Below, one piece after another: positions 12,872 through 63,000 of a stretch of 64,000 nt of DNA (position 1 is its first letter; each line of letters begins with the position of its first letter). The notes beneath the pieces are model-generated. The model was not told where the DNA came from and searched no databases. It worked only from the letters and a program-made list of their open reading frames with translations. The stretch is taken from NCBI GenBank assembly GCA_004764695.1, contig SMSO01000007.1, positions 1,495,270 to 1,559,269 on the forward strand, written 5' to 3'. Position numbers and translations under genes: made by a program. The DNA is from Schizochytrium sp. TIO01 (lineage: Eukaryota > Protista > Bigyra: Labyrinthulomycetes).

Positions 12872-13067
12872 CGCAGCGCAGTGAGGCCGACGATGAGGTT
12901 ACCTGCTGCTGCTGCTGCTGCTGAGGCTGCGGAGGCGGGCCGCGACGTTGCTTCGGCGGAGGTCGGCGGCGGTGGATAGACCGAGTCCACTTGACCACCC
13001 ACGCGCCTCGCGCACGAGAGCAGCTCCGTGGATGGTGGTGCACGAGGAGGAGGAGATGCAGACAGAT

Positions 13068-19500: not shown

Positions 19501-21418
19501 AGAGCAAGCAAAGACAGAGAGTCCTCCCGAATGAAGAATGAGCAAATTGACGTTTCCAATGCTGGAGGGCAGAGACAGTGGAGACCAGCACCAGGATTCG
19601 GGTACTTTGAATGTCATGTTATGACGTATAACATTCTAATCATTCCAAAGAAACGAGAACTTCGCACATAAGGGTGTCCGAGTCAGGTACTACGACTCCA
19701 CATCTCGCATCCCTTAATCAAGCTCCACAATATTTCTCCAAGGCCCATACTGCAAATTAAGATCAATTTGTATCAGACTACTTGCGCATTTCGGAGACTC
19801 TGCTCTAGAGTCTGGATCCTGGGACAACTTCAGAAGTGACTCTTATCAGGTACTTTACTAAATTACACTTTCTCTCCTCTTATAAGCAATCAATCATTGT
19901 TGTTTTTTCATTTTAATAAAATAAAGTAAAATATGTCTACCTACTAGGCAGACACTACGCTTAATATCGAAGAGTTGATCTTCGTACTATTATACTAGGA
20001 TATCCTTGAACCCTAGCCCTGACTCCTTGCCGCGGTGTGGGTGTTAGAAATGGGACCAGAAACGACTTTTCTTCTTTCCCTTTAATTTTTTAATTCGAAA
20101 ATGTTCTTTTCTTTGAATGAAGACTGCTCTGGTAAGCATTTTAAGATCTTGAGCGGATATTGAGTGGGACGCAAGACGGGACTCTTCTGACCAAAATGTC
20201 GAAGCGTCAAAGCGTGAATGCGAATCAAGGAAAGAGCATAAGGAAGGTGAATGGAAGAGTCATTTGCAACCTTGAGAAACTGAATTGGAGATCTTGTTGG
20301 AGTTGTTTATTTATGTGACTATTTGTTTGTTTTTCAATTTTAATTTTAATTCTTCTTATTGAATAGTTTCATTGAAAATCCCTCCCTTTGCTTTCATCTT
20401 ATAATACGAAAGTGCTCGCTACTTTTAGGATCTCGGTTTTCGATGGGTGTCACTGTTGTGGAGGAAAACGCGCTTCGGTATGTCTCAAAAAAGAAATAAG
20501 AAATTAATCTTATCCTTTTCTGTGATCTCGTTCAAAGCTTTTCTATCTCGAATGCTTGTGAGATTTGAGGCTGTACTGAAGTATTGGTCGTCCTGAGTTA
20601 GATGGGGCACTCACAGATGAATCAAAGGCGCAAGAACAACAAAGCAAGCATCAGCAGAGTCCTCTCAGGCTAGTAATCCATAGTTTTTCTCGATGTTGGC
20701 ATGACAATATTTATTCAAGTATGAGAAACTTGCTGCATTTTTAAGGTCATGAGAAATCTTACCAAACAGTGAATTGTAGTAAGGTTGGCAACTATATAGT
20801 TTCTTTCTACAATTAAAGAAAGACTTGGTTTTAATCACACGATCCCGAAAACCCCAGGGTTTAGCGAGTAGGTATCGCAAGTTCGTGTTAGTTTTCCACA
20901 TCATTACAGAACAGAAAAAGGACAGAACGATGTTTGCAAGATGGTTTTTATGTTTTTTTTGTTTTGCTTTTATGGCCAGCGAGCTTCATTTTCGCATCTC
21001 TCGAGATCCCCTGACAAAACCTTTCTCGCTCGAGACATTCAATTGCATTTCAGGAGCTTTCCTTGTGGGGCGGGTCAAATAGGGCCAGTAGGTCCCGTGC
21101 TGATCGTACTAGTACCATGCGCTTGCTACCTGGGGTCTCAATTATTACTACAAGTACCTACTACGACTAGGTAAATGTCTCAAGATGGGATGCAAAGTTT
21201 AACGGATAGATGATTAGGCAAAAGCAGGAGCTTGCATTACACTTGAAGCAGCGAACTCTGGATGCGTCAGAATAGTGACAAATAGACGTTAGAAACACCG
21301 ATGGAAATACACTGATTCTGGGTTAGGACCAAGCAGGGTGTCTGTCTAAAAGCCCATTGGCGCTGGAGGCTTCGGGGCCTCCCAGGACTGCTATTCTGCC
21401 CTGCCTCGAAGACAAGCC

Positions 21419-34479: not shown

Positions 34480-34567
34480 TGCTCCTAACCTGACTCAACT
34501 CAACTCTGCACGTGATTCCCAAATTGAGGCTTTGCTTGCTCTTCTTTCTGCTTCGTGTTCACGTCAC

Positions 34568-36808: not shown

Positions 36809-37473
36809 TGCTCCTACCCTGACTCATCTCAACACACCCCAATCTGACTCGACTCAACTCTGCTCGCGATTCCCAAATTGAGGCTTTGCTTGCTCTTCTT
36901 TCTGCTTCGTGTTCACGTCACGTTGCGCTACGCTTTTGCCTGGGTGTTGCGCTACGCTTTTTGTCTGTGTGCATTCCCCTTAATCTGCATGATCGATTGC
37001 AGTAATTCCTTCCTCTTACTCTTTAGATTACCACATTCAACTTACATTCCTTATAACCTGTGTATATCCATAACTTATATTCTTCATGATTATACATAAA
37101 CTAGTTATCCCAAATCTATTCCTCTTAGGCTATAGGTGCCCGTTAAACAAGCGTATGTAGTTTATGTTTCCGCTTAGCACGTACTCATTTTAACAACATA
37201 TCATTCCCCGTTACTAGGTAAGGTTTGGGTACGTATAAGTCATTTCAGGGTTTTTGTATACATATTAACTCCTTATTAGGGAACTTGGAAGAACAGGATA
37301 AATGGTTTATAATTTATGGTACTAGTACATATCTATAGGACAGAGAGAGCGCTATATAATTAGAAGGTAGAGTCAGAGTCAGAGTCACTGGACAACGTGA
37401 GAGAGCTGTTGTTATTCTCTTGAAGGCTTGAAGTTTGCCTAGCCCCAAGCTTAATAGTGAATGCAGCTATAAT

Positions 37474-42091: not shown

Positions 42092-44159
42092 CCTCGCTGC
42101 AAATTAGAGTAACCCTAAGCTATAACCCACCCTGACCCGGCTTCTCAGGCTTGCCCGTGCGAATGTCTGTGCCCTAACCAGAGTTGGACTATGCTGAGCC
42201 ATCGCAATGTATTTCTCATGCTTGTGCAATACGTTCCAAAATAGTTCCGCACTTGTTCCGGCTAGCTGTATTTCTTTTAGAAATGGATGTTTCTATAAAA
42301 TTTGCAGAACTTGGATTTCCTGTGGTAACAAAGTGGGGCTATTCAAAGGCTGTTCTTCAATCATGTCCTTGGATAGGTTGCACAAAAGGATGCCTCCTGC
42401 GGCGTCGATATCACGATCGACTTTGTGGGGCATGTGAAAACCTAAGGTGCTCCAAGCTTGTCGTGGATGGTTTTGAAGTGCAATCCTCTCGACAAATGAC
42501 CAGTCTACACAACTGGCAGCGGAGAAGCTCGGCTTTGTGAATGTGGACTTGTCGGAAGCCAACGAATAATACATTAGTCGAGCTGCCTTGATTTGGATCC
42601 ATCTGGTCAGCCCGTTGAGGCTTCACTTTAAGGCAAACGGATAACACCGTAGTTTTCATAGAGCCAAAGTGCAAGCTGGCGCCGAATCTCGGTAGTCCAG
42701 TAGGGCGCCCAAGCCTAGCCTGTTGAAGCTGATCCCTCTACCGATGTCTTTGCAGACGGCGGAGCTGTCTGGATAGGAACGTTGGAGGCCACCAATCTTG
42801 CATTTGCAATTCTCTCTTCACGTGACGGAGGACACTATGGAGTAGATCATGGTAAGGTCAGTGCTGCGTCCGGCCTCCACAATAAACTGCAGCCATAGGT
42901 GCCCTCAAAGTCGTCACTTACGTATATACGATAATCTCGGGGAAGCGCCCGAAGAACATTTGCTGAGACGCCAAACTTCCGGTTGAAGTACTTTGCTGGC
43001 TTGTATTAAAAGTTTGTTTCACTTGTAGTGTTTAGAGCTTGCTGGTTCCTTGGCCGTGCCATTTTCTTACCTAGCCTCCACTTCCTAAATAACTGGAATA
43101 CATCATTTATATGGAATAGACACTACCATTTGGAGTTTATGCAAGCTCTAACGTTTTCACAAGTGCAGCAGAGAAAACGGTGAGGTTATCAAGACCACTG
43201 AGCTGGAGCTTTGGAGTTATGCATAGCGTTAAGCTTGAGCAGCCTTCTATCTAGGTACTATATTAGAATGCAGTCACAATTGACTGAGCATTTTCTCTGT
43301 GAAACGAAGCCTCTCAAGCTCTGATGTATCTACGTGCAGAGAACCTAGTATTTGATATAGCCGATAAGGCGCGGTATGCACTTTCTTCTTGGCGAGGAAG
43401 GCAAGCAAGGAATGTAAGCACTAATCTAAGAATTAGAATCTGCCATTGCCTTGATGATGAAGATATATCTAGGTACTCTGTTTTGTTGCGATGAAATTAT
43501 AGCCAACATGCTGGATGAGACTACATCTTTAATACCCAGAGCCTTAGCACGGCAAGTGATGAACACCGAGAGCGAATAACCACGGTTATTGAGCTTATCT
43601 TCTTCTTTTTTAAATTAAAAAAACAAAAACATTTCTACTAAACTAAAAATTAAAAATGAACCAGCTCGTATATATCGATGAAAGCCACTTTTTCTAAACA
43701 TAATTCTTGGGCAGATACTATTAACTATTAAGGCCTTATCACACCCCTTTCACAGGAGAACGACTCACAAGCCCTGCGTTTAATGCACCTATTGTCAAAT
43801 TACACGCAACTTGTAGTATTGGGTTGAAAACGACCCCATCTAAATAACCAGAAAGCCGGCAACAGTGCAAAACACAGGCCTCCCTCACATCAAAATTTCT
43901 ACTCGCAATCATGATTTATCGCCCAATATCTTGCTGCTTGCATGTGCCTTCAGTTTAAGACTCAATCTGCAGTCTTGACGAGTCGCATTCCTTTTCACAG
44001 GCATCAACGATAATCAGCCTGAGGGTTATCCTCCATTAACCTGAAATAATCAATGCTAATTAGTAGTGAATATACTCAATTAATCATCGATTATGTTTCT
44101 TGCCACGTGCGCCGAAGGATTCCCGCAAACCCCAATTTTACGACCAGATACGCTCCACG

Positions 44160-45701
44160 ATGAGTAGTTTTCTGTACGAGCATAGCGAGAGTGAGCTCCT
44201 ACAGGCCCTGGGCCTCGTGGACCCTCTGGGCTGCCTGGGTGTGGAAGAAGGTGGCACTTGGGACGAGGATGGATTTGCATTCTTTGACGAGGAGGCTGCC
44301 ACAGACACCGAGGAGGATGAGCCACCAACAGTGCAGTCTCACGGCGAGGAAAACCTCGCTTTGGATGGATCTCGCAGCCGGAGCCACCATGGCAGTGACG
44401 TCTTCTCTTCGGAAGGGGAGGTGCAAAAAAATATGTCGTCTTCCTCGATTCGGAGTCTCTCACAGAGGTCTCCGAGGAGTAACGGAGATTTGCAGAAACT
44501 CGGCTCCAGCGCGGCGAAGCTTCAGCCGCATAAATTTTCTGCGGAAAGCCTCCCAGATCTGGACTCGAGATCAAGAAAAAGTGAGGAGGACAATGAAGAA
44601 CGTGGCCGTGTAGAAGACGGCGGGTTTGACGATTTGGCAGATGGAAATGAAGTCAACGCCGCAGCAAAGTTATCATCCTCGCGAAGGAGCTTAGGCCCTA
44701 ATGGTGGATCCGGACGATTTGAGGCTACAGGTGATGGGGGTCATACCTCTGAGATTGCTTCGCCTCCTTTCGCTACACAGTCGACGCGAGCCAGAAGGGT
44801 TTCGCAAGCGCCTCTGCTAGTTGCAGGAGCTACTACACAGGAGGCTGATGAGCGCGATGGTGTGCCAAACTCATGGAGTGACGGAGATGCCAGCGAGTTC
44901 AAGGTGCGTGCTGGGCCAAATTATAACCGAACAAAGCGAAAGCAGGTATCCAAAGAGTCCCTATATAGGCAAATTGGAATGGATATGTTTCGCAATACCT
45001 ACGATGACGCGGAGCGTATCAAGAATATTGGAGCGCACGTCAAATTACCTGAGTCTCGCTTACCAGAGCTTCCTGCTGGCTGCCCCTTCCCTCGCATCAT
45101 TGTCTGCAATTTGCAAGTCCCGATGCAAGCTCCAAAAATGTTTGGCAAGAGTGACCCAGACGCAGGAATCAGTATTGTGCTATACTATGAAATTAAACGC
45201 TCCACGCTTGATTTGCTCGAAAATGAAGAATCAGCTCAATCTCCATCAATCAAGCTCTTGAACAAGTTCTTTACAGACTTTCGCCACTCTGAAGATATGC
45301 AGCGTCGCTTTAAGGTGATTGGCTTGGTGCATAATACAGTCGAAGTTGGGGTGCCAGCAATGTTTCAAAGCTACAATGGTAAACCTGCAATTATTTTCAA
45401 GACAGGTAAAATCTATTCAGGATCCATCAATGGCAATCCACAAGACCAATATGTAGAATTTGACGTCTGTGTTCATGACTTTGCGTATCTTGCGCGCAAA
45501 GCGCTGCACGCCATGATTGACCGCGCTCCGCAAATGCGGCTGCGTTGTGCCTTTATTGTACAAGGCGAAACGGATGAAGAGCTTCCAGAACAAGTATTCG
45601 CTTGCTCTGCAGTTCACAAGCTCAATCTTCACTCTGCAAGGCCTGTCAATTTGCCGCCACATGATATACATGCTGTTCACAAAAGCCGCACTTTTGCATG
45701 A
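44160..45701 (+). CDS. EDR2 C-terminal domain (DUF1336) protein with acidic disordered N-terminus
   Basis: NSWS...FKVRAGPNY...K..S..SLY, RFKVIG, YNGKPAII, YVEFDVCVHDFAYLARKAL, AFIVQGETDEELPEQV. First ATG at 44160; the frame is open from 44100. Confidence 0.9.
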   Translation: MSSFLYEHSESELLQALGLVDPLGCLGVEEGGTWDEDGFAFFDEEAATDTEEDEPPTVQSHGEENLALDGSRSRSHHGSDVFSSEGEVQKNMSSSSIRSLSQRSPRSNGDLQKLGSSAAKLQPHKFSAESLPDLDSRSRKSEEDNEERGRVEDGGFDDLADGNEVNAAAKLSSSRRSLGPNGGSGRFEATGDGGHTSEIASPPFATQSTRARRVSQAPLLVAGATTQEADERDGVPNSWSDGDASEFKVRAGPNYNRTKRKQVSKESLYRQIGMDMFRNTYDDAERIKNIGAHVKLPESRLPELPAGCPFPRIIVCNLQVPMQAPKMFGKSDPDAGISIVLYYEIKRSTLDLLENEESAQSPSIKLLNKFFTDFRHSEDMQRRFKVIGLVHNTVEVGVPAMFQSYNGKPAIIFKTGKIYSGSINGNPQDQYVEFDVCVHDFAYLARKALHAMIDRAPQMRLRCAFIVQGETDEELPEQVFACSAVHKLNLHSARPVNLPPHDIHAVHKSRTFA

Positions 45702-46670
45702 TCTCCCTGTTAGTATTGATAGTTTCAAAAGACCCCCTGAAGAACTACCAGGCACCTAGTCAGAACCTCGGTTCGGTTCTGGCTTTCTGTCTGCCCTATG
45801 TAAAAGACCAACCAATAATATCCTAACCTTTTGAATTTTCGTATATATCCCCTCCCTCCCCAATCCCCCCAGAGCAAAAAAGAAGAGAATTACGAAGAGC
45901 TACACTTTGCAAGATTTCGTTGCACCGGCGAGTTTATTTTCTGTATTTGTAAATCCTGAATTGCGAATTGTAAATATCAATGATTGCTGCGCAAGCCTGT
46001 CTCCTGGTCAGAGTCTTGAAATACTATCATTAAACTTCCACTAATATAGCTGTTCTGAAGTGAGGATAGTAGATTGATTTGGCTTGTCTCCTGTCGTTAT
46101 TTTCTCGTCGCCTCAAATTCTATATCTGCAAGGTGAGAGTGCAGAAAACAATAAAAGGGTAAGTACTACTTCATCCCAACAGAGGCTAGTACCTACCTTC
46201 TGGTCACCTTTGACCGTGAGATCTCGACCGCTTTCAGGTTCTTCACTTTAAAAAGTTGGAGTACTTACCTTCCTTTGAAGGCACACATGGAGGGTGGGGG
46301 GTACAAGAGACCTCTGATCATTGACGAATAGATACATATATAGTTTAATATAGCAAAAAGCTAATGATCGTAGAGGAATTGGGTGAGAAGTTCTCGTGTG
46401 CCGCCTCAGTTAGGGTTCATGTTGCGTTGCATGTGCCTCCTTGCCTTTGTAGAAAGCAATTTTCATCCGGTGCCCTCTTCTAAAACACTCTGCAGCAGAT
46501 AGTTCACGCCCTGAGCTCACTCGGGCAATAGGGCAAACCCGTAACTTCAATCACCCCCGCTGCCTGGATCAGAGTTGCCGGAAGACCTGACCTGCCTTGA
46601 GAGACTGGTTCATTCACCTGCTGCGTTCAGGTAGAACCGACAGTCAAAGCTTGTACAGAGGTTGAAGGCC

Positions 46671-49600
46671 ATGCTGACTGGCGTTGCTCGAGTCTATGCA
46701 ACGCTTGTTGTGATAATATGTATATTCTGCAGCTGTCATGGAGAGACAGTCTGCGCAGAGACAAGTATAACACCAGTCACGCTTACTGACACAGAAGCAG
46801 TATGCGCAGACGGGTCTCGGGCTATGTATTATATATCTCCTGGCTCTTCGAAAAACTTTATTGTTTGGCTTGGTGATAACGAATTATGTGCAAACCCTAT
46901 TCAATGTGAGGAATTTTGTCAAGGCAGCAATGAAAGTGCTGATTGTATTTCAAGCCCATCAGCAATTAATTCGTCCAATTTTGAGTGCTACTATCAACAG
47001 TTACAGTGTTCATCTTCAATGTATCCATTAACAGACATGCGATTTTCAACCCTTCTATGTGATGAAGAAGACTTGAGTTCTGTGACAAGGGTGTATATTC
47101 CATCGTGCACACTTGACTGGCACCTCGGGCGTGGAGATCAAATTGAACCAACAAATAATTACTTTCACGGTGCTGATGTAGTAGACGCTGTTTTTGCTGA
47201 CCTTGCGTTCTCTTATAACTTAACTTCTACAAGCTCGGTCATTATCGGAGGTACCCGAGGAGGTGGAATCGGAGCCGTGCATCATGCCGAACGATTAAGC
47301 ACAGGTAGCATGGTTGCAGTCGACAATGTTCGCACAATTCTAGACTCTGCCTGGCTCCTCAATCATCCCCAGTTTGCTGTTCGTGGGTACTCTAACGAAA
47401 CAAGAACATTTCAGTATGACACTGACTTGAAGCTGAAGTCGGCACGCTGGATCAATGGCGCTCCTCTTGCTCAAGATTGTAACGAAACAATAGGGCAGGA
47501 GGAGGGCCTCCATCGTTGCCTATACATTTCAAATGTGCTGTCTTTGATGGCATTTCAATATATTCCATCTCTAATCTTACAAAGTCAATTCGAGATGACT
47601 CAGCTTTCAGAACTAGGGGTGACTGATAGTGACTTGTCTAGCTCTTTTGTAGATTCAACAGAGTACGCACAAGCAATTTTTTCGTTCATTACGGGTTACG
47701 GAATGAGGATGAGACAAGGCTTTGAACGCATGTCCAATACTGCGATTAATCCCTTCACCGGGACTGCAACCCATTACGTCTGGAGTCCAGCTTGCGCTCA
47801 ATACGGATGGATTCTCCCTGTAATGTCTCAGTCTACAAGTACGAGAGAAATTCAACTTGGTACAATTGGAACTATTTCGTACCAGCGCATAGGATCTGAA
47901 TGGTCAAGTACAGAGGTGCATGGATTATCTGCGAAAACTATTATACTCGAGTGGATCTTTAATGGAACTGTCCAAAGCTCACCAAATGTAGAGAATGGAG
48001 TCTGTGCAGATCGCTGCGGAGAGTTTCTTTGTGGTGCTTCTTGCCCCAGTTCCATTGACGAGGCACCGTTGGAAAGCCACACATCTTCCTGTGAACAATC
48101 AACGGTACGCGGCTACGCATTGTTTGTGATAGGTTCCGGCTGGCTGGCGTTTCTTTTAATGCGTGGACGTATTCTTTTATTTGACATTACATGTCGTAGA
48201 TTTCGCCGAGAGATGGAACGTGGCGTAAATGAAAAGGGTATATCTGAAAGCAAGGAACATGTAGAGAACATCGTTTTAAAGGAAGCACGAGAAACGAATA
48301 AAGGTCGCTCTATTCATTTGATGTTGAGCAAGGTGTCCTATTGGGCCCCAGCGAAGAAGAGATCTGCGCCACCTGTGCGTATTCTGGACACTGTAAGCGT
48401 TGTTTTCAAACCTGGTACTGTTCATGCGCTTTTAGGACCTTCAGGTAGTGGAAAGTCTACCTTGCTGGACCTCTTGTCATATACCCGTGAGGCAGGTCGA
48501 ATGACTGGCCAGCACATGATCAATGGAGTCCCATCTCATTTGGGACGTGCTGCCTTTTTACGTGAATGGCTTCGAAATTCTACCTCATATGTGCGGCAGA
48601 CTGATGTTCTTTTCCCTAAGCTGACCGTCCGCCAGCATCTACAGCATGCAGCCTGGTTGCAGCTTCCACAATTTGCGACTGATCGAGAGAAATTGGAACG
48701 CGTTGAGCAAATTATCAAGTTGCTGGAATTAGAAAGTTGTGCTGATACAGTTTGTGGTGATGGAGGAATTCTAATTGAAGGAGGCATTTCAGGGGGGCAA
48801 CGAAGGCGGGTTTCTGTGGCTACGCAGCTTTTGTCCATGCCAGCAGCTCTTCTGCTGGATGAGCCAACATCTGGTTTAGATAGCACCAATGCACTGCTGC
48901 TTGTTAAAAGTCTGACCCAACTTGCCCATAATGCTGGTATAAACATTATTTTAACAATTCACCAACCACGCAGAGAGATTTTTAATCTGCTAGATCAGGT
49001 GACTATTTTAATGCGGGGTCAAATTGTTTTCTCAGGTGCACCAAATACTGCTGGCCAATTTTTTGACGTCCCTTTGGACGAAGTTAATATTGGCGATGAA
49101 ATTCTCGATAAGCTTCAAGGTGCATCAGAAAGTATCATTGAAAGATACCGTGTGCGTTATGAACAAGGCCCTTTGGGCAGAAAGGTGCAGCAAACGATCG
49201 AGGCAGAACGGACGAGATTTTCTCCCGAACTTGGTCGTGCACTCCGCAAAACATTGGTAGAGCACGCTCTTGCTTCTGGCCGCTGGTCTTGGAGTGCTCC
49301 TATCAGCGTTCTCACCGCATTCTGGGTGTTGATGTCTCGAACAATCAAACGAGGTGGTTTCGATATTTTTCGAACCGCACTCTTTGCTCTATTTGCTGGA
49401 GTGCTTGTGGGGGTCGTATTCACGAAAAGTGATACGTATACAAGTCAAATCGCTTTAGCATACCTTTCAACAAGTACTCTGACATTTCTAGCTTCAGTCT
49501 TTTTGGGAGATCGTTACAACCTAGAAAAGGGGACTTGGTCATTCGAGCGTGCCAACGGGAATATGGTTCCCTTTCAGGCCTTTTTATTAAGCGTGTTTTC

Positions 49601-51089
49601 TCGTAATATGGTGGCGGCCACTATAGAGTCCTTATGTTATTCGATCCCGCTCTATTACATGTCATTCTACTTTCAAGATGATATAGAAAAGCTCTATAAT
49701 TTCCTACTTCTCATGGTGCTGACAAGTGTTGCAGTAACTTCGCAAAACACCATGGTGGAGATTTTCGTTATTGAACGTGGAGGAGAAGCATCTGATGACA
49801 CACGAAAAGCTGCACTTGTAAACATGTCCTTGATGGCGCTATCGGCAGTCTTGAATGGATTTATTATCAATCTCGAAGATATCCCGATATTTTTGCGTTG
49901 GATATCCTATCTTATGATTACACTGTATGGTTTTGCTGGCACTCTAATTAACTCTTTAGGCGACGAGGTGATTACTGAGGATGGTCTGTCTAAGCTCGAA
50001 CAAGCTCAACGCGCCGGCTCTAATGTCATTCGCGCATATGACCTAGGCAACTTTGATGTGACGACGTGCATCTTTGCGCTTTTGCTGATTGTTATTCTTT
50101 ACCACGTGACTTCGGTTCTTGTATTCTTTTTTCTTTACGTCTTTCAGACCAATCACTTAAAACGTGAAATCCCAGCTGTTACGAGACGTTTGGAAGGTCG
50201 TGGATCGGAGGAAGAGGGAGAGGAAGAAGACTCTGTACCATACCTTGGAAAGACAGGCGAGTCTATTCGAGCACTGGTTAACAAGCAACTGGAGACATCT
50301 GGTATTGCGGCGCCCGACTCGCATGGTCTCGTCTTCACATTTCTTTTAAGCCGACAGATGTTGACGATCTTTCTTGTTGTAGACATCTTTCTAGCCGGCA
50401 CACTATGCGCCTTTACGGATGGGGAAACGTCAGTATTGAGCTCAGGCGCTTCCGGAAGTGAGATACTCGGAGGGTTGAAGGTACTGTCGTGGAGTCAGAT
50501 TAATGTTGGATTCATGCTTCTTAATGCCTTTTTATTTCTTGTCTATCTAGGACAGTTCTTTGTTCAAATCTTCTTTCTAGTTCCAGCTTCAAGTCTTGGC
50601 TTACGAAGTTTGGTCTTTTGGGTATCGCGACAAGATTTTCTAAGTGCGATTCTCTTATTTGCTGACGCTCTCGCAATATTCTTGCTCATTTTCATTGCGC
50701 CAGGTCATATTCTCCTGCAGATAGGCCTCCTTGTTTTGAGCCGAGTGTTCCGATTCGGATTTGTACTATGCTACTACTTAAAGGTTAACTTATTCCATCG
50801 TTCACGAGCACGGAAGCTCAAAGAGACAGCTGTAGAAGGAGATCGGGGAGGTGAATCTTCAGCTACAACACGCCGAAGAGACTCTCCATTTGGTTTTGTT
50901 GGTGTAACTCCCCCGCCAGGCCTTTTGAGACCTGTCTCGACTCGTAGTCCTTTTTCAGCCAGATTTCACGGCACTTCACTAGAGAACAATGCTACCGTTG
51001 GCGTAATAGAGCGCCCCGTTAATCTTGGGCCGATGTGGCGAGCATATCAAAGCAGCGAGGATACTGATATAGGTGATGACGAAGTTTAG
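46671..51089 (+). CDS. ABCG half-transporter with N-terminal signal peptide, pectin-acetylesterase/Notum-like ectodomain and extra C-terminal 4-TM module
   Basis: Walker A GPSGSGKST (48435), YVRQTD, signature ISGGQRRRV, Walker B LLLDEPTSGLD, H-loop TIHQP and an ABC2-type TMD after the NBD. N-terminal hydrophobic signal followed by AVCADGS..YY, VYIPSCTLD, FHG..VVDAVFADL and DSAW. ATG at 46671; the frame is open from 46662. Confidence 0.93.
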   Translation: MLTGVARVYATLVVIICIFCSCHGETVCAETSITPVTLTDTEAVCADGSRAMYYISPGSSKNFIVWLGDNELCANPIQCEEFCQGSNESADCISSPSAINSSNFECYYQQLQCSSSMYPLTDMRFSTLLCDEEDLSSVTRVYIPSCTLDWHLGRGDQIEPTNNYFHGADVVDAVFADLAFSYNLTSTSSVIIGGTRGGGIGAVHHAERLSTGSMVAVDNVRTILDSAWLLNHPQFAVRGYSNETRTFQYDTDLKLKSARWINGAPLAQDCNETIGQEEGLHRCLYISNVLSLMAFQYIPSLILQSQFEMTQLSELGVTDSDLSSSFVDSTEYAQAIFSFITGYGMRMRQGFERMSNTAINPFTGTATHYVWSPACAQYGWILPVMSQSTSTREIQLGTIGTISYQRIGSEWSSTEVHGLSAKTIILEWIFNGTVQSSPNVENGVCADRCGEFLCGASCPSSIDEAPLESHTSSCEQSTVRGYALFVIGSGWLAFLLMRGRILLFDITCRRFRREMERGVNEKGISESKEHVENIVLKEARETNKGRSIHLMLSKVSYWAPAKKRSAPPVRILDTVSVVFKPGTVHALLGPSGSGKSTLLDLLSYTREAGRMTGQHMINGVPSHLGRAAFLREWLRNSTSYVRQTDVLFPKLTVRQHLQHAAWLQLPQFATDREKLERVEQIIKLLELESCADTVCGDGGILIEGGISGGQRRRVSVATQLLSMPAALLLDEPTSGLDSTNALLLVKSLTQLAHNAGINIILTIHQPRREIFNLLDQVTILMRGQIVFSGAPNTAGQFFDVPLDEVNIGDEILDKLQGASESIIERYRVRYEQGPLGRKVQQTIEAERTRFSPELGRALRKTLVEHALASGRWSWSAPISVLTAFWVLMSRTIKRGGFDIFRTALFALFAGVLVGVVFTKSDTYTSQIALAYLSTSTLTFLASVFLGDRYNLEKGTWSFERANGNMVPFQAFLLSVFSRNMVAATIESLCYSIPLYYMSFYFQDDIEKLYNFLLLMVLTSVAVTSQNTMVEIFVIERGGEASDDTRKAALVNMSLMALSAVLNGFIINLEDIPIFLRWISYLMITLYGFAGTLINSLGDEVITEDGLSKLEQAQRAGSNVIRAYDLGNFDVTTCIFALLLIVILYHVTSVLVFFFLYVFQTNHLKREIPAVTRRLEGRGSEEEGEEEDSVPYLGKTGESIRALVNKQLETSGIAAPDSHGLVFTFLLSRQMLTIFLVVDIFLAGTLCAFTDGETSVLSSGASGSEILGGLKVLSWSQINVGFMLLNAFLFLVYLGQFFVQIFFLVPASSLGLRSLVFWVSRQDFLSAILLFADALAIFLLIFIAPGHILLQIGLLVLSRVFRFGFVLCYYLKVNLFHRSRARKLKETAVEGDRGGESSATTRRRDSPFGFVGVTPPPGLLRPVSTRSPFSARFHGTSLENNATVGVIERPVNLGPMWRAYQSSEDTDIGDDEV

Positions 51090-51689
51090 TCATTCTTTGT
51101 ATTTTCTTTTGGTCCTTTATATAAATTTGCAAGGCAAAAATTTGTACTCTGGATTCTAGTTCTTTAAAAAAAAAATAGCTTACTTTCATTTAATCCATAG
51201 TAACCAGAAGGCTGGGCTTGCACCCCCCAATACGCTGATCAACTTTGCCCTGCTCGGAATACTGACATCGCGCTTAATAAAAGCCAAGTGTATTTCAGGT
51301 AAGAAATTGTATTACAGAGACTGTATACAGGACTATTATTGAAGTTACTACTACTAATACTAATTGTAGAGATGACACTAGCGAAGAACCATTCTGGTGC
51401 AATTCAGGGATTGTTGAGCGCTTCTGATAGATTTTGATAACAAGGAAAAGGCGAGGGATAGGTGCGCAAATATACAAACGAATCAAATTTCTGATGTTGG
51501 AAAAAAGTTGTCATCGAATTGACAAGAAATCTGATCATAGAAAGATTTCATCTCGGACAGAACACTGTGAGATGTCCAGAATACCAGTAGGGAAGGTAAT
51601 ATCCTCCCGATCGTCTTTAAAAGGACACTTTGCTTGAACACAAAGAGTTGATGGGGTATGATGAAGTCAGGTCTAGAGCTTTTCACAAC

Positions 51690-53075
51690 TTAGAACTCTT
51701 CATTACCACGGCCTTTGATCTGGCGGAGCTCTTCTTCGGTGCTCTTCTTGTACACTTTGCCACCGTCATAGCCAGCAGCTACCTTGGCAGAGATTTCTAC
51801 CTGAGCGTCTTTAGGCACAAGCTCCTCAGGAATGGGAACACGCTCGACGATCTCGATACCCGTGGAGACAATAGCGTCGTACTTCATGTTACTCATGGAG
51901 ATAAATTTATCAATCTTGGTGATTCCGAGCCAGTGCAACGCATCCGGCATAAGTGCTTGGAAGCGGGAGTCCTCGACTCCAGCAACGTTTGCGGTACATC
52001 TAAAATACTCGCTCGCCTGATCACCACCCTTCTGGCGCTTGCGAGAGTTGTATACAAGGTACTTGGTAACCTCACCAAGTGCGCGTCCTTCCTTGCGAAA
52101 GTAGACGAGAATGCCAGCACCACCTTGCTGAGCAGTCTCAATGGCTACCTCCATTGCGTGCGCAAGGAAGGGGCGGCACGTGCAAATATCTGAGCCAAAG
52201 ACATCACTACCGTTGCACTCATCATGAACGCGAACCGCCAGCTTCTTATTCGGGTCACGAATAGCATCCATCTCACCGAAAATGTAGATGGTGAAGCCGC
52301 CGATGGGCGGCAGAAAGACGCTAAGATCCGTGCGGGTAACCAGTTCGGGATACATGCCATTGGTCTCCTTGAACAGCAAATGACGGAGTTCATTCTCACT
52401 CACGCCAAAGCGCTCAGCTACACCCGGCAAATACCAGACAGGCTCAACAGCGGCCTTAGTAACCTTTGCCTGGCCGTCGGCGGTGAGGACCTTGCCATCT
52501 GGCTTAAGGCGACCGAGGCGCAGAGCTTCCTTGACTTCTGGGAAGTCAACATGTGCCTTGGTGATAGCAATCGTCGGGCGCACATCCATGTTTTCTCCCT
52601 TGATGTAGTCCTTGTAAGCATCTTGTACAACGGCGCCAAACGGGTCGATTGTACAAATCTTCTTGGGATCAAACCATGACGGGTAAGGGCCAATATCTAC
52701 GGCCGGCTCAGTGTTGTCAAAGTTAGGGACGTAGTCCGGGTCCAGAGCTCCGGATGCAATAGCAAGTGCGCGGTAGATCGAGTATGAACCACCATGGGCA
52801 CCGATGGAATTTCTTCGGATCTTCTCCTTGCTCGTGCACACAATTGGCCCACGAGTCGCCGGGTCAGACGCGCCCCAATTGATCGGGATCGGGTCAACAC
52901 CTACGCCAGGGTGAGAGGTAAGTGACACATACGATGCAACCTTGCGCCGCTTGGACCCCGTCGATCCCGTTGTGCCTGTGGACACAATGGACGACGATCT
53001 TCCTCGGATCTTTTCATCTTCCCCCTTCACAACGCCATTACCGTTGGCATGTACTTTCTCGCCTTCAGCGGCCAT
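51690..53075 (-). CDS. urg1: Uracil-regulated protein 1 (URG1/URC1) family GTP cyclohydrolase II-like protein
   Basis: LTSHPG..PIPINWGASDP..RGP, RNSIGAHGGSYSIYRALA, KICTIDPFG, DVRPTIAITKAH, RVHDECNGSDVFGSDICTCRP (Zn-binding cysteines), YFRKEGRALGEVTKYLVYN, MSNMKYDAI, DAQVEISAKVAAGY. Confidence 0.93.
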   Translation of the reverse strand: MAAEGEKVHANGNGVVKGEDEKIRGRSSSIVSTGTTGSTGSKRRKVASYVSLTSHPGVGVDPIPINWGASDPATRGPIVCTSKEKIRRNSIGAHGGSYSIYRALAIASGALDPDYVPNFDNTEPAVDIGPYPSWFDPKKICTIDPFGAVVQDAYKDYIKGENMDVRPTIAITKAHVDFPEVKEALRLGRLKPDGKVLTADGQAKVTKAAVEPVWYLPGVAERFGVSENELRHLLFKETNGMYPELVTRTDLSVFLPPIGGFTIYIFGEMDAIRDPNKKLAVRVHDECNGSDVFGSDICTCRPFLAHAMEVAIETAQQGGAGILVYFRKEGRALGEVTKYLVYNSRKRQKGGDQASEYFRCTANVAGVEDSRFQALMPDALHWLGITKIDKFISMSNMKYDAIVSTGIEIVERVPIPEELVPKDAQVEISAKVAAGYDGGKVYKKSTEEELRQIKGRGNEEF

Positions 53076-54216
53076 TTTCCCGCACTTGCTGTTCTACACA
53101 AATCTACTCGCTCCTCTCCAGCGCAGTCTCTCTTCCAGGCCTCCGAACACGCTCTACCTCGTGCACGCTCTCGCACCAAGTCCGCAACCACCGCAAACCA
53201 GCAACGCAGTCACGATCTCTCAACAGACAGATGGATACAGTTCTGTTGCGAGCAAGATACGAAATGTACTACCTGCTTCTATTACTTCACGAGCAACTCA
53301 GTCAAAGAAGCTTCTCCTGCTTTTCCACTACAGTGACTAAGCCACTCTTATGCTCTCTGTCTCTTCGTATGTTCCCTAAAACTCAAATTAAAAATTCAAA
53401 TTCAAGCACTCCAGCGGCCGAGCTCCGGTGCGGGCTTCTCGGCTCGTGCGGGCGGCGGCGGCTACCTTTGGGGCGCTGCCAGCGTCTTCCTGTCGGTATC
53501 CCGGGTGCTCGTGCGTGTGGTGCGTCCGTCTGGCGCTCTGATTATCTCGCTTCGCGTGAATGAATCGCGAGAACAGTTGAGGTTTTGCTGCTCTGGTTTT
53601 GGTCTTCTTTGCACGAAATGCGCTTTTTCTGTCTTTCCTTTCCTTTCTTCACCTTTTCTTCGCCTTTTCTTTCTTTGCAGCCCCTCACCACCCTCACTGA
53701 GCCCACCTCCCCTCATACACCCAAACCCATTCCCCTCTCAATACCCAACTCTCTGTTCCACAAATTTGCTTTCCCCTCTACCCTCCTCTACCACTTCTTC
53801 ACTGTCCTCCTGACGCTTCCTCTCAAACCATCCTGGGAAGGGTATTTACCCCATTTCAAATCTTCCCCCCCCTCTTCTTCCCTCACACCTCCTCTGGGCA
53901 TCTCCGAAGCTCTCGTTCCTTCTCTTCAATTACGCGCCTCCCAAGGACAGATTGTATAAGTCCCACTGTGGGCAGTCGTCTTTCGGATTTTTCCTATTAC
54001 TATCCAAAGTGGCGTGTAGTATATATATAACCTAAACTCTAGCACTTGCATTTGTGCTTGCTTTATTGTACGTAATAGGTAGCTCGGTAGTAGCTGCCTA
54101 AGCAATTGCTAGCGAGAGTGAAGAGACTGCCCCGGGGGGGGGGGTATCAGGGAAAAGGTTAGGAGGGCGTATAGAGTGGAGCCCGCTTCGGGTGCTGGGT
54201 CTTTCAATGAAAGCGC

Positions 54217-56929: not shown

Positions 56930-59900
56930 TTAGTGGTCTCGGTCTTCACGGTGTTGATGCTGCTGGTGATGCCGGGATCTATTGTCAGGGTGTTGAGAAT
57001 GTCTGTGAGTCTGAGACGAAGAAATATGCACAGATCGCTCACCGCCTTCCGGGGACCGTATACGTCGTTGCTGGGCAGATAGATCTTGTTGCACTTGGCG
57101 ATTTTGGCGATGGACAGCATCTTCACGGGAGTGGTGATGGCGAACTTGCCTTTCTAGCTCTTCAGATGTGAGATACTGGTCTCTGTATCCCCTATTGCCC
57201 TCCCTGTGATGCCTACTAATCTCTGTTTCCTGTTGTTGGTGTTGTTGATGTTGTTGATGTTGTTGATGTTGCCTTTGAGCAGAAGAAGGAGGTGGTCGAT
57301 GTTGTTGTCGATACTCTTGATCCCGAGAATGAGCTTCCCTGGAGCCTTGGCCATGTCGATTCGCCTGCTGGTGCCTGGAATCCAAGTAGCCCTCTTGTTG
57401 CTGGTGTTGAGAAGAGTTTGGATCGTGACCTCGGTCTCGAGCGTGAGAAACATGTTTCTCATTAATTCCGGGCTCTTGATGTAGTTGCTCAACTTCTTGG
57501 CGGTGATGGTGCTGCTGGTGCTTCTGATCGTGATGGCGGACGTGACGATCAGTTCCCTTAGATTCGTCTTGTTGATGATTACTTCTGGTTTCCATTCTTC
57601 CTCTTTGGTGTCGGTTTTCTTGCCCTCTCAGCACTTGCTCTTGCAAGTTTCCTTCCTCCTGAATGTGATCGACGTGAGATGATAATTGCTCCAACTGATG
57701 CTCGTGCGTCTCGTTTTTGGGCTCGCGCTCACGATGCTGTGCTGAACGTCTAACATGCTGTTCTCCTTGTTGATGTTGCTGGGGCTGGGGCTGCTGCCGC
57801 TGTGGAGAACTCGTGTCCACATTTGGTTGTTCAGTATTTTGTTGGGACCGTTGGGCCTCGTGATGAGGAGGGTGTGTGTGTTCTCTAACGTGTTGCGGTT
57901 GCACTTGGGGCTCTTTATGAAGTGCATGCTGAGAATCTTGTCCTCTGTCGATCTCCCTTGAGCCTTCGTTTTCATTCTTTTGCTCAAGTTCGAGGGGAGT
58001 TACAAGATTGTGGGCTCGGTGCATACTCTGCGACTCTTCTTCTCGGCTTTGCTGTTGAGATGATCCATAGCCCTGCTTCTTCTCATCTTGAACCACACCA
58101 AGTCGATTAGTAGTGGAAGAGCTCCTGCGAGAGATGTCAGAAGTTGTGCTTTTTCGTGGCTTGTCGGCGCCCTGCACATGAATAGCATTGACATCATCAA
58201 GAGCTTCCTTGTTTCTGCGGCCTTGGTTCTGCTTTCTTGACTTATCCTTGCGTTCCGTTGAGGAGGAAAGTTGAGAGGCAGATTGATCTATGACTGTTAA
58301 TTCGATTTTTGGAATTTCTTCAGTTGCTTTTGTTGTGACTACCTCTTCGAGCTTTTCAAAATGTCTCGTGTCGGCTTTAACTGGAGTTTTCTCTAGATCT
58401 CCAAGCTCAGCAGGTTCTTGACAACCATCTTCTCTGTACACAGTACCTTCATTGGTGCTTGGACCTGAATTTAAAAGCGCTTGATCGTTGGCTGGAATTT
58501 TGAGTCTCCGTGATTCGATCTTTGCGTTTTCTGTGGATACTTGTGTTTCCGTTGCATCATTGCTATGGGCATGACCATGTAAGTTAGGCTGTTTGGTCTT
58601 AATTGGAGTACGGGTTGGCCTCTCTTCAGAACGCATGACTCTCGTCGATGTTTCAGAAGGGCCCGGCTCCTGTACCTTCTGGAGAGGTCCAGTTCTGGCA
58701 CCAGTCGAGGAGCTTTGTTTGACGTGGTCACTAGCAGATTCTGGATCTACAGAGTCTTGAGGTTCACTCCTTTCTTGGGTGCGAGGTTTTAGATCTGTGC
58801 CCTCTTTTCTTTGTTGAGAGTTTGGCCCAGTTAACCGGGTTACTGCTTTTCTAGACTTGCTTATCTTCTCAGGTTGTGGATTCCCTTCAGATCCTGCATT
58901 TTCTTCCTCTATTTTTAGAGTAAGTTCTGCTTGCTTTGTAATATTTGAACCTTTTGCTGCCGCTCGCGAATTGATCTGTTTTTTTGCACTGCGCTGTTTT
59001 GCGTCTGCAGTAAGTACTTTATCACCCTCGAACTCTGGTAATAAAATCTCTGTGTTTGCTTGCATTCCTTTAGAAGCATCACCATGCGGTTCTGGTGGTT
59101 CTATACCATCATATGTAACGCTCGAGTCATCCCAAACCATGTTAATAACTGTCAAAGAGTCCGATTTCTCAAGTGGGTCAGGAGCATCCATGTGTTCGTA
59201 GAACACCATTTCACCCAGATCCAAATTCACTACCGACAATTGTTGTTTAAATATGTGATCTTCAGATTGTTTTTCAGAATCCATAGACCTGTTAGCCCTT
59301 TGAGTGTCCCGCATGCTCACCTTTCCTGCAGGGCTCTTCTTATTTACTGGGGACACCGGGCGGTCAAGGGGTGACTCGTGAAGCCTTTTCAACACTGCAC
59401 GCTGCTTGTTCTTTGTCTTGCACTTGGGTTTGACATCTAGGCTACCTGAGTCTGCTTTTTCATTTTCAGCACGACGCTTTGCCCTTAGTTTTCTTTTCTC
59501 AACGCGCTTAGCTAGAGCTTGATCATGAACACGGATCTGCTCTTCCATTCGTTTTATAGCTGCAGCAAGAGCCTCATCTAAGGAAGATATTTCTCTAGTT
59601 GACGGGCGCCGCATGCTTGGATCCAAATCATTAACGTCAAGTATCGGCTTCCCAGCTCCCTCTTGGGATACTATTGCAGGGGGCGTTAAAGTATTCCATT
59701 GTTGTTGTGCTGTCTGTTTTGGAGAAGATGCACTTGCCTCCATACCAGGGGCGCATTTTTCATTTTGAACGATACGATGTCTTCGACCATATAGCTTTAG
59801 AGCCCTCGCCAACTCTGTGTACTCTAGTACACCAGAACTGTCGTGGTCAATACGTTTGATCACCCCAATCGCATCGTCCAAAGTTATATCTGTAACACCC

Positions 59901-61498
59901 AAACCTTCAAGAATTCTTAGAAGCTCTTGAGCATCGATAGTGCCATCCCCAGATGCATCAATTTCCGTAAAAATATGGACAAAACGCTTTTTGTCTTTTT
60001 CCATTGCTGTATATAATGCTGAAATAGCTTGCTCGACGTTCTTTAGATGCTTGACAAGATCAGCAACATGTGCAGGTTGCATACCGTCACGTATTGCAAA
60101 CTTCCAGGTTGTAAAACCTTGGAAAATCTCAGGGTAGCGTAGTCGACCCAAAACCTTCTTAGAGAGCTTCGATTTAAGATTTCGATAGTACTCTTTTTGC
60201 TGGAATCGACGCTTTCGATCTTGATTGCGACGATATCTCTGTAGGAAATCGCAAAGCTTTTGTGGCACGTCGCGTACAGCTCGATCCAGTTCAAAATATG
60301 AGATAGCTCCACTAGCATCGTGGTCTAGCAAAACGAACACCTCGTGAGCATCTTTGATTGTAATATCGGGGGTGACGCTCCCCAGAAGCGTGCATAGCTC
60401 ATGCTCGGTTAGTTTGGCATCAGCACAGGTGTCAAGCGCATCGAATTTCCCCTTTAAATTGCATTTGTCTTGGGCTAATGTCAAACGAACAAAACCCAAC
60501 GCTCGCTGTGCAGGAGATATCTCATTATATTTAACGTTAAGCTCAGACTCCTCCAGACTCAGTGTACCTATGTCCTTGGTCTTTTTTACATTCAATTTAT
60601 TTTCATTAATTCGGCTTATATGGAGCTTTTCTTGCAGGTTATTTGTTTCTCTTTCACTGTTTGCTCCACCATGAGACATATCGGTATTATTTGTCGAGTC
60701 TTTCCCACTACTGTCGTCCTCTGCATCATCCTCTGGTCTACTCGTACGCGTATGTTGTCCATCTACCTCGTGAACTAGAGAAGAAACGTTCTCACGCAGA
60801 AGCAAGGCAAGCTGCCTTCTTGACTTGAGCCAACGAACCTCTAGTTTCTGACGTAATATACTTTGTGTTGTAACACAGCTGGTGACTTTTTTTTGTTGCT
60901 TGGCTTTGGCAAGTTGTTGATCGATATCGTGTAGATCCTTGCGGGCTTTCCATTCTTTGAAGCGTGCCGCGCTGACCAATTTACGATGCAGTGTACGCTG
61001 ATCGCGGGAATGGAAAAATGCATGAGTGGCTTGACGACTTTGCCTAGCAGAACGCGACTTTTCTTTTTGCCAGCGCAAGTACTCGTCATGGGCAAATTCT
61101 CGTCGGTAGGCCAGTTTTTGAGCCTCCTTTAACACATCTTTAGTAGTTGGCTCTTTTGGTGGATACCATCGCTCAGGCCATTTCTGGAGGCGGGGGTCTT
61201 TAGTGTCGCTCAAGGGCTTAATCATAGCTACAACATCTTGTGATTTAGGCGACAATGGGTCAATAGGCGCTCTCAAACAGGTCATCTCATCTGAAGAGCG
61301 AATGATTGGCTTGATATCTTTCTCGGGGTCTTTTGGTCTCTTTGCAAGCTCCTCACGCCAAGCCCGCATTCCTCGATCGGACTTCAGGCATGGCTCGAGC
61401 AAATATTTTGCGTGACGGGTTTCCTGAGTAGCAACCACATCAGTTCGGGCACCTGCTGCGAGCTTCTGCTCCACATGTAATAAATTCATGGACGGCAT
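56930..61498 (-). CDS. 1522-aa protein with four EF-hand motifs and a long disordered Q/H/R-rich C-terminus
   Basis: EF-hand loops LDTCADAKLTEHEL, LDHDASGAISYFEL, IDASGDGTIDAQEL and IDHDSSGVLEYTEL in two pairs; coiled-coil segments; low-complexity tail. Confidence 0.9.
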   Translation of the reverse strand: MPSMNLLHVEQKLAAGARTDVVATQETRHAKYLLEPCLKSDRGMRAWREELAKRPKDPEKDIKPIIRSSDEMTCLRAPIDPLSPKSQDVVAMIKPLSDTKDPRLQKWPERWYPPKEPTTKDVLKEAQKLAYRREFAHDEYLRWQKEKSRSARQSRQATHAFFHSRDQRTLHRKLVSAARFKEWKARKDLHDIDQQLAKAKQQKKVTSCVTTQSILRQKLEVRWLKSRRQLALLLRENVSSLVHEVDGQHTRTSRPEDDAEDDSSGKDSTNNTDMSHGGANSERETNNLQEKLHISRINENKLNVKKTKDIGTLSLEESELNVKYNEISPAQRALGFVRLTLAQDKCNLKGKFDALDTCADAKLTEHELCTLLGSVTPDITIKDAHEVFVLLDHDASGAISYFELDRAVRDVPQKLCDFLQRYRRNQDRKRRFQQKEYYRNLKSKLSKKVLGRLRYPEIFQGFTTWKFAIRDGMQPAHVADLVKHLKNVEQAISALYTAMEKDKKRFVHIFTEIDASGDGTIDAQELLRILEGLGVTDITLDDAIGVIKRIDHDSSGVLEYTELARALKLYGRRHRIVQNEKCAPGMEASASSPKQTAQQQWNTLTPPAIVSQEGAGKPILDVNDLDPSMRRPSTREISSLDEALAAAIKRMEEQIRVHDQALAKRVEKRKLRAKRRAENEKADSGSLDVKPKCKTKNKQRAVLKRLHESPLDRPVSPVNKKSPAGKVSMRDTQRANRSMDSEKQSEDHIFKQQLSVVNLDLGEMVFYEHMDAPDPLEKSDSLTVINMVWDDSSVTYDGIEPPEPHGDASKGMQANTEILLPEFEGDKVLTADAKQRSAKKQINSRAAAKGSNITKQAELTLKIEEENAGSEGNPQPEKISKSRKAVTRLTGPNSQQRKEGTDLKPRTQERSEPQDSVDPESASDHVKQSSSTGARTGPLQKVQEPGPSETSTRVMRSEERPTRTPIKTKQPNLHGHAHSNDATETQVSTENAKIESRRLKIPANDQALLNSGPSTNEGTVYREDGCQEPAELGDLEKTPVKADTRHFEKLEEVVTTKATEEIPKIELTVIDQSASQLSSSTERKDKSRKQNQGRRNKEALDDVNAIHVQGADKPRKSTTSDISRRSSSTTNRLGVVQDEKKQGYGSSQQQSREEESQSMHRAHNLVTPLELEQKNENEGSREIDRGQDSQHALHKEPQVQPQHVREHTHPPHHEAQRSQQNTEQPNVDTSSPQRQQPQPQQHQQGEQHVRRSAQHREREPKNETHEHQLEQLSSHVDHIQEEGNLQEQVLRGQENRHQRGRMETRSNHQQDESKGTDRHVRHHDQKHQQHHHRQEVEQLHQEPGINEKHVSHARDRGHDPNSSQHQQQEGYLDSRHQQANRHGQGSREAHSRDQEYRQQHRPPPSSAQRQHQQHQQHQQHQQQETEISRHHREGNRGYRDQYLTSEELERQVRHHHSREDAVHRQNRQVQQDLSAQQRRIRSPEGGERSVHISSSQTHRHSQHPDNRSRHHQQHQHREDRDH

Positions 61499-63000
61499 TT
61501 TCTAACATCAAAAGAAAGCAAGCGTAACAAATTTGTTGGCAGCACGGCGCTCAACACAATCGGAGGAATGACGTGATTTCCCCTCAAGCCATCTGCGATA
61601 GAGCGCCCAATCTTTGAACCCCAAGGCTCGCCCCTTTCCCTTGAATGGATCTTCATCACCGCGCCATGCGCGTTTTTGCACATACGTTCTAGTACACACA
61701 CTTTGCTAGGTCTGGGAACAGATGCTACTGTGGGAACGAACCAGTAGTCACTGGCCTTTGACTCAGGTTTATATCACAACAGTGCGGAGGGCTGCGACTT
61801 TAATTCGAAAGTCCTCATCACAGCATCGTTGATGCTTGAAGCATAGTTTTGATTTAATCTTGTAGGTAAGCTAGTTCAACAGTTACATCACACAATGAAT
61901 GGAAAGTTACCTTTTCGATTTTTAAAAACAAAACAAAAAACTGTTATTTAAATAAAACAAAAATAATTATTAATGAAAGAAAACACAGCTAATTGACAAT
62001 GGGAGTTGTTAATTTAAAATAAATAAAAAACACAATAGAGTCACATTGGTACTTGAGATGGACACTAATGCCTTCATCTGAAATAAATAAGAAAAATGGA
62101 GGTGCCTGCTACTGAGGTAGAAATATTATCACCTGTTATATGTCAGTAAAAGAATAAGGTCTACCTAGCACTGATATAAATCACTCGATTTAAATTTAGT
62201 CCTGATGCTTCTAGATTGAAGTTTGGAAAACAAATTTACAGCGTTTCAACGCCGCAAGAGTTACACATGCATGATTCCATTGTGGTCGCACCGAGTGCCA
62301 TCTCGTATAAAGCTGCTGGCAAGGTAGTGGATTTAAAGTAGGGCATTCCTTCTCTTTGCTGTAGCGAGATAAAAAAATAGCAGAATCCTGCTACATATTC
62401 AGAAGAATACTTCAATTTTATTTTGCAAACTATGAGCTTGTTTGATTATGTTTATATAAACTGCAACTTGAAGATTGTAAATAAATAATAATAATACTTC
62501 CTAACTATAACACATGGGTAGAAGACTCGAGGTAAAAGTTAAATATTAAAAATGAATTTAATGTAAAATGTTTTTTTAATGTTTAAATATAAATTAAAGT
62601 CTAAAATATTATAAAGAGTAAAATGCCATACAAAATACCATACCATACAAACAATAGGTACATCTCTAGCTAGGTATCGCACCTAACTAATCCGTTAACG
62701 ATATCGAGAAAAGTATGATGAACCTTTGACTTGTAGTAGGGAGGAAGTACAGGAACCACTACGGCAAAGTGATACAGTCTGTACAGCGTTTGCTCACATG
62801 AAATGGGAAACTTGAGCTTCGCAAATACCTTTTATAAAGAGTGGACTTATGGAGTGACCGATCAACATACTTGAGCAGCGTGTATGTGGTCAGGGTCGAC
62901 GCATAACAGCAGCACCCACGACGTAAGAGTAATTAGCACGATAGTCTTCGTGGTGACAGTGACGTCCAGAGAGCGAACTTTGTAGAGCTGGACAGCTCTC

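Follow-up and report, generated by a model that had tools for sequence, protein, structure and literature searches.

Introduction

Voltage-sensor domains (VSDs) are defined by basic residues at every third position of the S4 helix (PMC10651576). Only one transporter, SLC9C1, is said to be under VSD regulation (PMC10620092). Its sensor makes no intramembrane contact with the transporter and acts via an extended S4 of about 60 Å; the sensor residues include N736, Y743 and E746 as well as D767 and D777 (PMC10620092). In Ci-VSP/TPTE and in the Phytophthora VSD-cyclases PPTG_13136 and PPTG_13761, which are likewise a stramenopile case, a VSD module sits on a non-channel effector (PMC12223298). Hv1 carries the S4 signature RxWRxxR (PMC4621752). 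No ABC protein is among the VSD protein types listed in section 4 of a 2023 review (PMC10651576), and ABC proteins have 0 occurrences in a 2024 voltage-sensor review (PMC13095418).

Here we describe a locus in a window of 64,000 nucleotides (the whole stretch of DNA that was analyzed), at which a Notum-like ectodomain, an ABCG transporter and a four-helix tail resembling a VSD are encoded in one reading frame. This conserved chimera is a new architecture made from known parts. Among the literature matches listed, none described a fusion of ABC with VSD or of PAE with ABCG, in a search with most subscription journals and supplements outside its scope. A conserved fusion of ABCG and VSD would extend the known VSD effectors to a primary active transporter.

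Results

One intronless reading frame encodes an ectodomain, an ABCG transporter and a four-helix tail

The forward-strand open reading frame (ORF) at 46671..51089 is intronless, with a single exon, and encodes 1,472 amino acids (aa). Its features are as follows.

46671..51089, + strand: whole ORF, with signal peptide, Notum/pectin-acetylesterase (PAE)-like ectodomain, transmembrane (TM) helix, ABCG nucleotide-binding domain (NBD), ABC2 transmembrane domain (TMD) and VSD-like four-helix tail
46671..46742, + strand: likely signal peptide, aa 1-24, a hydrophobic N-terminus (hydropathy peak 2.19; putative role)
46788..47738, + strand: Notum/PAE-like ectodomain, Pfam PAE at aa 40-356 (Pfam E 2.4e-17)
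48105..48161, + strand: single TM helix, aa 479-497, joining the ectodomain to the cytosolic NBD (hydropathy 1.61)
48384..49070, + strand: ABC NBD, Pfam ABC_tran at aa 572-734 (Pfam E 3.8e-24)
49320..50153, + strand: ABCG-type (ABC2) TMD, aa 884-1161, with Pfam ABC2_membrane at aa 884-1094 (Pfam E 5.3e-10)
50154..50324, + strand: variable linker with an acidic run, presumably cytosolic, unconserved in the alignment (from sequence and alignment)
50355..50414, + strand: S1-like helix, aa 1229-1248, with invariant mid-helix Asp1238 and invariant Cys1246
50499..50582, + strand: S2-like helix, aa 1277-1304, with Tyr1292, Gln1295 and Gln1299
50634..50696, + strand: S3-like helix, aa 1322-1342, with invariant Asp1322 and Asp1332
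50709..50780, + strand: S4-like helix proper, aa 1347-1370, with Arg1358, Arg1361 and Phe1364
50709..50825, + strand: S4-like helix with its predicted continuous basic extension, which holds invariant Lys1371 and His1376
50826..51086, + strand: Pro/Ser-rich low-complexity C-terminal tail (from sequence and alignment)

The four-helix domain sits in the last fifth of the ORF. The initial annotation had quoted peptides for four extra hydrophobic helices after the ABC2 TMD and an acidic linker, and these peptides were located in this frame, with Kyte-Doolittle peaks of 2.3, 2.2, 2.7 and 1.8 for S1, S2, S3 and S4, respectively. In the last 329 residues of the protein, no Pfam family was found.

The fusion is real and conserved

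The closest named relative is GBG26845.1 of the thraustochytrid Hondaea fermentalgiana, which is 54% identical over 1,481 columns and makes a thraustochytrid the likely origin of the window. Sequence searches yielded 13 relatives with the tail and thus, together with the window protein, 14 tail sequences. Ten near-complete relatives carry PAE, ABC_tran and ABC2_membrane. With the window protein, the architecture is common to 11/11 near-complete members, which bears out the ectodomain-ABCG-four-helix chimera read from the single sequence by the initial annotation. In addition, relative P0015 begins within the NBD and shows the same fusion with the tail. Since the tail is present with invariant residues in all 14 aligned family sequences, it is more than a chance product.

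Sequencing runs also covered the locus. Four runs were inspected over the region 43500-53600; two of them, X4 and X7, from different studies, show coverage on three genes and almost none in between, a transcript-like pattern from which their RNA nature is a guess, as no run is recorded as RNA. A transcript-like X7 contig (48553-51127) extends without a joint from the NBD across the tail, and a transcript-like X4 contig (48515-50407) links the TMD to S1. X7 and the window differ at 20 codons; 15 of the differences are silent, including both of those in the tail. A DNA-like contig covers the whole fusion and may itself be the source of the window. A metagenome scan with the full-length alignment (1/64 parts) was dominated by generic ABC genes, and its best rows matched the ABC part only.

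In our view, it is scarcely credible that an assembly or read-through artifact has joined the tail, as a gene of its own, to the transporter. The Hondaea gene model does merge neighboring genes at its N-terminus, and P0011 and P0012 have the tail without ABC domains. However, P0011 lies on a contig of 1,030 bases and P0012 is perhaps an incompletely called gene, the window frame is open throughout, the same fusion occurs in 11 near-complete proteins and P0015, and contigs of two studies bridge the TMD and the tail. An artifactual fusion was rejected on these grounds, and the ectodomain-ABCG-four-helix fusion is confirmed as real and conserved.

P0012 (465 aa) lies on a contig of up to 702 kb and has an S4 with three arginines, a weak C-terminal WW match and no ABC domain; either an incomplete gene call or a protein that stands alone would account for it. 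By eye, the C-termini of P0005 and P0006 show a WW-like motif resembling that of P0012.

The ABC part is of the ABCG type, and the ectodomain has lost its catalytic triad

The best PDB matches of the ABC part were ABCG25 (E 6e-51), Pdr5/Cdr1, ABCG16 and ABCG2. The NBD is N-terminal to the ABC2 TMD, and both exceed their Pfam cut-offs. This NBD-then-TMD order, the ABC2 TMD and the full set of ATPase motifs are shared with AtABCG25, ABCG2, ABCG1 and ABCG5/8, and the sequence features tested place the window protein in the ABCG family. Walker A, Q-loop, signature, Walker B, D-loop and H-switch are intact in 11/11 near-complete members; with every catalytic motif kept, the NBD is likely an active ATPase. 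Unlike ABCG half-transporters, the protein has an added N-terminal ectodomain with a TM helix and an added C-terminal four-helix domain. Fungal Adp1-type ABCGs carry an EGF-like ectodomain.

The ectodomain scored 63.5 bits with PF03283 (cut-off, 26.6) and was aligned with human Notum at E 9e-7. It belongs to the same domain family as Notum and plant pectin acetylesterase (CE13) and has the same motif order; in these enzymes, the Ser-Asp-His triad lies in the motifs GCSxG, NxayDxxQ and HCQ (PMC5465549). In the window protein all three triad residues are lost, with Arg196 in the Ser column, Glu308 in the Asp column and Tyr378 in the His column. Across the 11 members, the catalytic Ser position is occupied by Arg (7), Gly (3) or Leu (1) and never by Ser, the triad Asp is kept in 10 and the His in 7. 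In contrast to Notum/CE13, the domain is thus devoid of the Ser and is membrane-anchored on an ABC transporter. An active Notum/PAE esterase was rejected on the absence of the catalytic Ser. Because the triad is lost, the ectodomain is likely a binding domain and not an enzyme; the substrate of Notum suggests, as a guess, a lipid ligand.

Conserved charges of the tail follow a VSD-like pattern

Tail identity to the window protein is 22-47% for the ten near-complete relatives. R1228, D1238, C1246, D1322, D1332, R1361, K1371 and H1376 are invariant in 14/14 tail sequences. In S2, position 1292 is aromatic (Tyr or Phe) in all of them. Position 1295, three residues further, is Gln in 12, Leu in 1 and Tyr in 1, and is acidic in none. 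One position-group outward in S1, no acidic residue was found.

In S4, position 1358 (R1) is Arg in 11, Lys in 1 and His in 2 members, and position 1361 (R2) is Arg throughout. Position 1364 (R3) is Arg in 9, Phe in 4 and His in 1; the window protein has Phe1364 here. Both members with His at R1 are among the five without R3. S4 therefore reads basic-x-x-R-x-x-R in 9/14 members, the window protein has two arginines only, and a fourth S4 Arg is absent. The initial annotation had named in advance the conservation of the Asp and Arg residues in homologues as a point on which its reading would stand or fall, and the pattern held: the S1 Asp and R2 are kept in 14/14, and R1 is basic or His in 14/14.

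The suspicion in the initial annotation that the S4 is degenerate is supported and can be made more precise. In a tree of the ABC part (11 members and 4 outgroups), the five R3-less members fall on one side of a branch with 99/100 support. They form a clade nested beside an R3-containing member, in a tree whose root rests on long branches. From this nesting, the two-arginine S4 of the window protein is likely a derived loss of the third Arg, and this copy looks degenerate.

The loops fit a topology with cytosolic termini. Lys+Arg content is 2.7% in the S1-S2 loop, 9.9% in S2-S3, 3.1% in S3-S4 and 22.4% after S4, which is consistent with the N-in/C-in arrangement of a VSD (S1-S2 out, S2-S3 in, S3-S4 out). 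N-glycosylation sequons were counted in S1-S2 loops (3) and in the post-S4 stretch supposed to be cytosolic (1). Four TM helices with cytosolic termini are thus predicted by hydropathy, model and loop charge bias.

How common such S4 patterns are was assessed in other ORFs with at least four predicted TM helices. The strict pattern occurs in 7/14 members vs 0/90 other ORFs, and a two-charge pattern in 12/14 vs 4/90; both patterns were composed after the family had been seen, and the 90 ORFs include six-frame ones that are perhaps not genes.

Cys1246 (50406-50408) lies where S1 ends on the outer side; it is invariant in 14/14 and has no obvious partner inside the tail. A disulfide to the ectodomain, to a TMD loop or to another subunit is possible.

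Comparison of the tail with described voltage sensors

Like SLC9C1/sNHE, the family has a C-terminal S1-S4 that is set apart from the preceding transporter by a cytosolic linker and whose long S4 reaches into the cytosol. By eye, the spacing of N736/Y743/E746 in SLC9C1 is matched by N1285/Y1292/Q1295, and that of D767/D777 by D1322/D1332, both pairs being 10 residues apart. In this register, assigned by eye against SLC9C1, the charge-transfer center of a VSD is represented by the S2 aromatic and Asp1322, both in 14/14, and the S2 acid three residues after the aromatic is missing from the 14 sequences. Unlike SLC9C1, the family is of the ATP-driven ABCG type, has an ectodomain and no CNBD, and carries 2-3 S4 charges rather than 6, with the S2 Glu mostly replaced by Gln. 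Membership in SLC9C was rejected, with neither an NHE domain nor a CNBD found by Pfam in the window protein.

The likeness to Hv1 proposed in the initial annotation stands only in part. Shared with Hv1/TMEM266 are the mid-S1 Asp, the S2 aromatic, three S4 basic residues in most relatives and a helix past S4. Asp1238, which is conserved in 14/14 and lies mid-helix in the model, recalls Hv1 D112, a resemblance short of established equivalence. In contrast, the Trp of RxWRxxR, which precedes R2, is found in 0/14, and membership in Hv1 was rejected on this basis. Moreover, unlike Hv1/TMEM266, the tail is fused to a transporter, and the window protein is without R3.

As in Ci-VSP/TPTE and the Phytophthora VSD-cyclases, a VSD-like module is combined with a non-channel effector. 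There, the VSD precedes a soluble enzyme, whereas the tail described here follows a membrane transporter; in addition, the Phytophthora VSDs match Pfam Ion_trans (PMC12223298), whereas the window tail does not.

Structure prediction and homology searches

AlphaFold2 with an 11-row alignment predicted four long helices (mean pLDDT 78.4, pTM 0.74), in which S4 and the conserved extension, with its invariant Lys and His, form one 37-residue helix. For this four-helix bundle, Foldseek ranked VSDs high: Ci-VSP was at rank 1, Nav1.7 chimeras at ranks 2 and 4, and SLC9C1 at rank 12 (18% identity). These matches are non-significant (E 2.1 or worse, rmsd 7.5 Å). With VIA-align, soluble bundles (FAT domains, Z about 11, maximum 11.6) outscored VSDs (Z 7.2-8.9, rmsd 4.2-5.7 Å). 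Single-sequence AlphaFold2 gave a poor model (pLDDT 59), for which a wide structural search was uninformative, returning generic bundles and, at rank 13, the Hv1 chimera 3wkv (Z 7.2).

For the tail of P0012, the ten best family-bearing matches among named ESM Atlas clusters all belonged to the Ion_trans family or clan. The best Ion_trans clusters scored 0.88 (171 shared features), 0.87 and 0.86, with Ion_trans on 25-66% of their members; the 0.88 is below 0.9 and serves as a lead only, and a third of shuffled proteins also obtain ten same-clan matches. The window's own tail matched no family (0.78).

Profile searches gave little. Pfam Ion_trans matched neither the tail nor any of the 11/11 members scanned, a tail profile search detected no VSD in the PDB (one unrelated weak row), and phmmer of the tail against PDB sequences likewise returned one unrelated weak row only. 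HHalign against 30 bacterial (Bacteroidota-side) channel VSDs gave probabilities of 5-7.5%, in S4 or S3-S4 only, and the HMM ranking of channels was unremarkable (best rank 32 of 1,017). A custom profile test against bacterial VSDs reached z 1.4-2.3; in its controls, shuffles of S1-S3 only matched the real score in 7-8/60 runs, and wrong helix orders equaled it. All VSD profile templates were bacterial. In a viral fold library, no match was found at E 0.001 or better. A complex prediction of the ABC part with the tail, in which alignments were not used, was uninformative (score 0.00).

Mainly on the combined evidence of helix order, topology and invariant charges, we consider it probable that the tail descends from a VSD. 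The homology is suggestive and statistically unproven, and the tail would function like a VSD at best: given the missing S2 acid and the non-significant homology tests, we do not classify it as a proven VSD.

A model for the chimera and its alternatives

The reading that we tentatively prefer, while giving it slightly less than an even chance, is that of an ABCG half-transporter with a dead Notum domain and a likely diverged VSD that tunes the transporter through its long S4. By analogy with the ABCG family, two chains would dimerize and export a lipid-like cargo driven by ATP. Outside, the dead Notum ectodomains might bind a lipid or another ligand without cleavage, as the Notum fold suggests, and have an acceptor or sensor role, with the VSD-like tails lying at the periphery of the dimer. 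If SLC9C1 is a guide, the S4 arginines would form pairs with the aspartates of S1 and S3, membrane voltage or pH would shift S4, and the cytosolic S4 extension would relay this movement to the ABC part with no need for an intramembrane contact. In the R3-less clade of the window protein, less charge would be moved by the sensor, or pH or lipid would be its main stimulus; steep voltage sensing is less likely for the two-arginine window copy than for the R3-containing relatives.

A bolder version, in which the family is a voltage- or pH-gated ABCG exporter with a true S1-S4 sensor and a Notum domain that captures lipid cargo or an outside signal, is conceivable but doubtful. If such gating were true, the protein would integrate three inputs (ligand, voltage and ATP) and represent a second class of VSD-controlled transporter after SLC9C1. 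The three-Arg members and the derived two-Arg clade offer a natural pair for the question of the minimal sensor charge number, and the isolated 170-residue domain is directly amenable to gating-current or fluorometry methods.

The same residues can be read in other ways. Asp-Arg pairs might simply hold the fold of a locked, VSD-derived tail, with docking, dimerization or trafficking as its role. Replacement of the S2 acidic counter-charge in 14/14 points in this direction, as do the loss of R3 in 5/14, the change of R1 to His in two of those five, and S4 charges that number only two or three. However, three S4 charges suffice for gating of Hv1 (PMC13095418), and the i+3 register of three Arg is kept in 9/14 deeply diverged members, and we regard a locked tail as unlikely. 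Rather improbable, too, is a tail unrelated to VSDs, that is, a lineage-specific membrane four-helix bundle with convergent buried Asp-Arg pairs. The sequence-profile tests, all weak or blank, and the higher structural alignment scores of generic four-helix bundles would agree with convergence. Yet those weak profiles used bacterial templates only, Foldseek and ESM Atlas both rank VSD proteins first, and the order and topology of the helices, the aromatic residue of S2, the S3 Asp and the 3-periodic Arg of S4 are all VSD-like.

A further alternative makes the tail a proton or ion pathway beside the ABC pump, Hv1-like or of the gating-pore type, for instance for charge balance. The invariant mid-S1 Asp, reminiscent of Hv1 D112, and three S4 basic residues in 9/14 members would suit such a role, and VSDs without S4 charges give gating-pore currents (PMC10651576). 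Against it, the Hv1 signature Trp is absent in 14/14, and in the clade of the window protein the missing Arg is mostly replaced by bulky Phe, which leaves this alternative with little probability.

Neighboring genes

The Hondaea model GBG26845.1 (P0003) has 2,181 aa, in which an EF-hand part, a GTP-cyclohydrolase-II-like part and the transporter are merged. In the window, a GTP-cyclohydrolase-like gene (51690-53093, - strand) lies downstream of the transporter on the opposite strand, and its product is 75% identical to the middle part of GBG26845.1. Conserved linkage with an inversion, combined with a merged Hondaea gene model, is the likely explanation. The upstream neighbor (44070-45701, + strand) encodes an EDR2_C domain and is covered by transcript-like contigs.

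Farther away, two tandem ORFs (32596-34494 and 34922-36823, - strand) encode proteins of about 632 aa that are 82% identical; they show a weak C-terminal kinase-like match, which is below the cut-off in Pfam, and their differences cluster at aa 105-170. Larger ORFs of the window are a 2,161-aa ORF with C2 and IQ motifs (21350-27835, + strand), a 1,523-aa ORF with EF-hands (56930-61501, - strand) and a 1,363-aa ORF with no Pfam family over the cut-off (8807-12898, - strand). Elsewhere, on a contig with compact, AT-rich, giant-virus-like genes, an ORF resembling a two-pore-domain K+ channel comes immediately after an ABCG half-transporter (L009:1303-3945).
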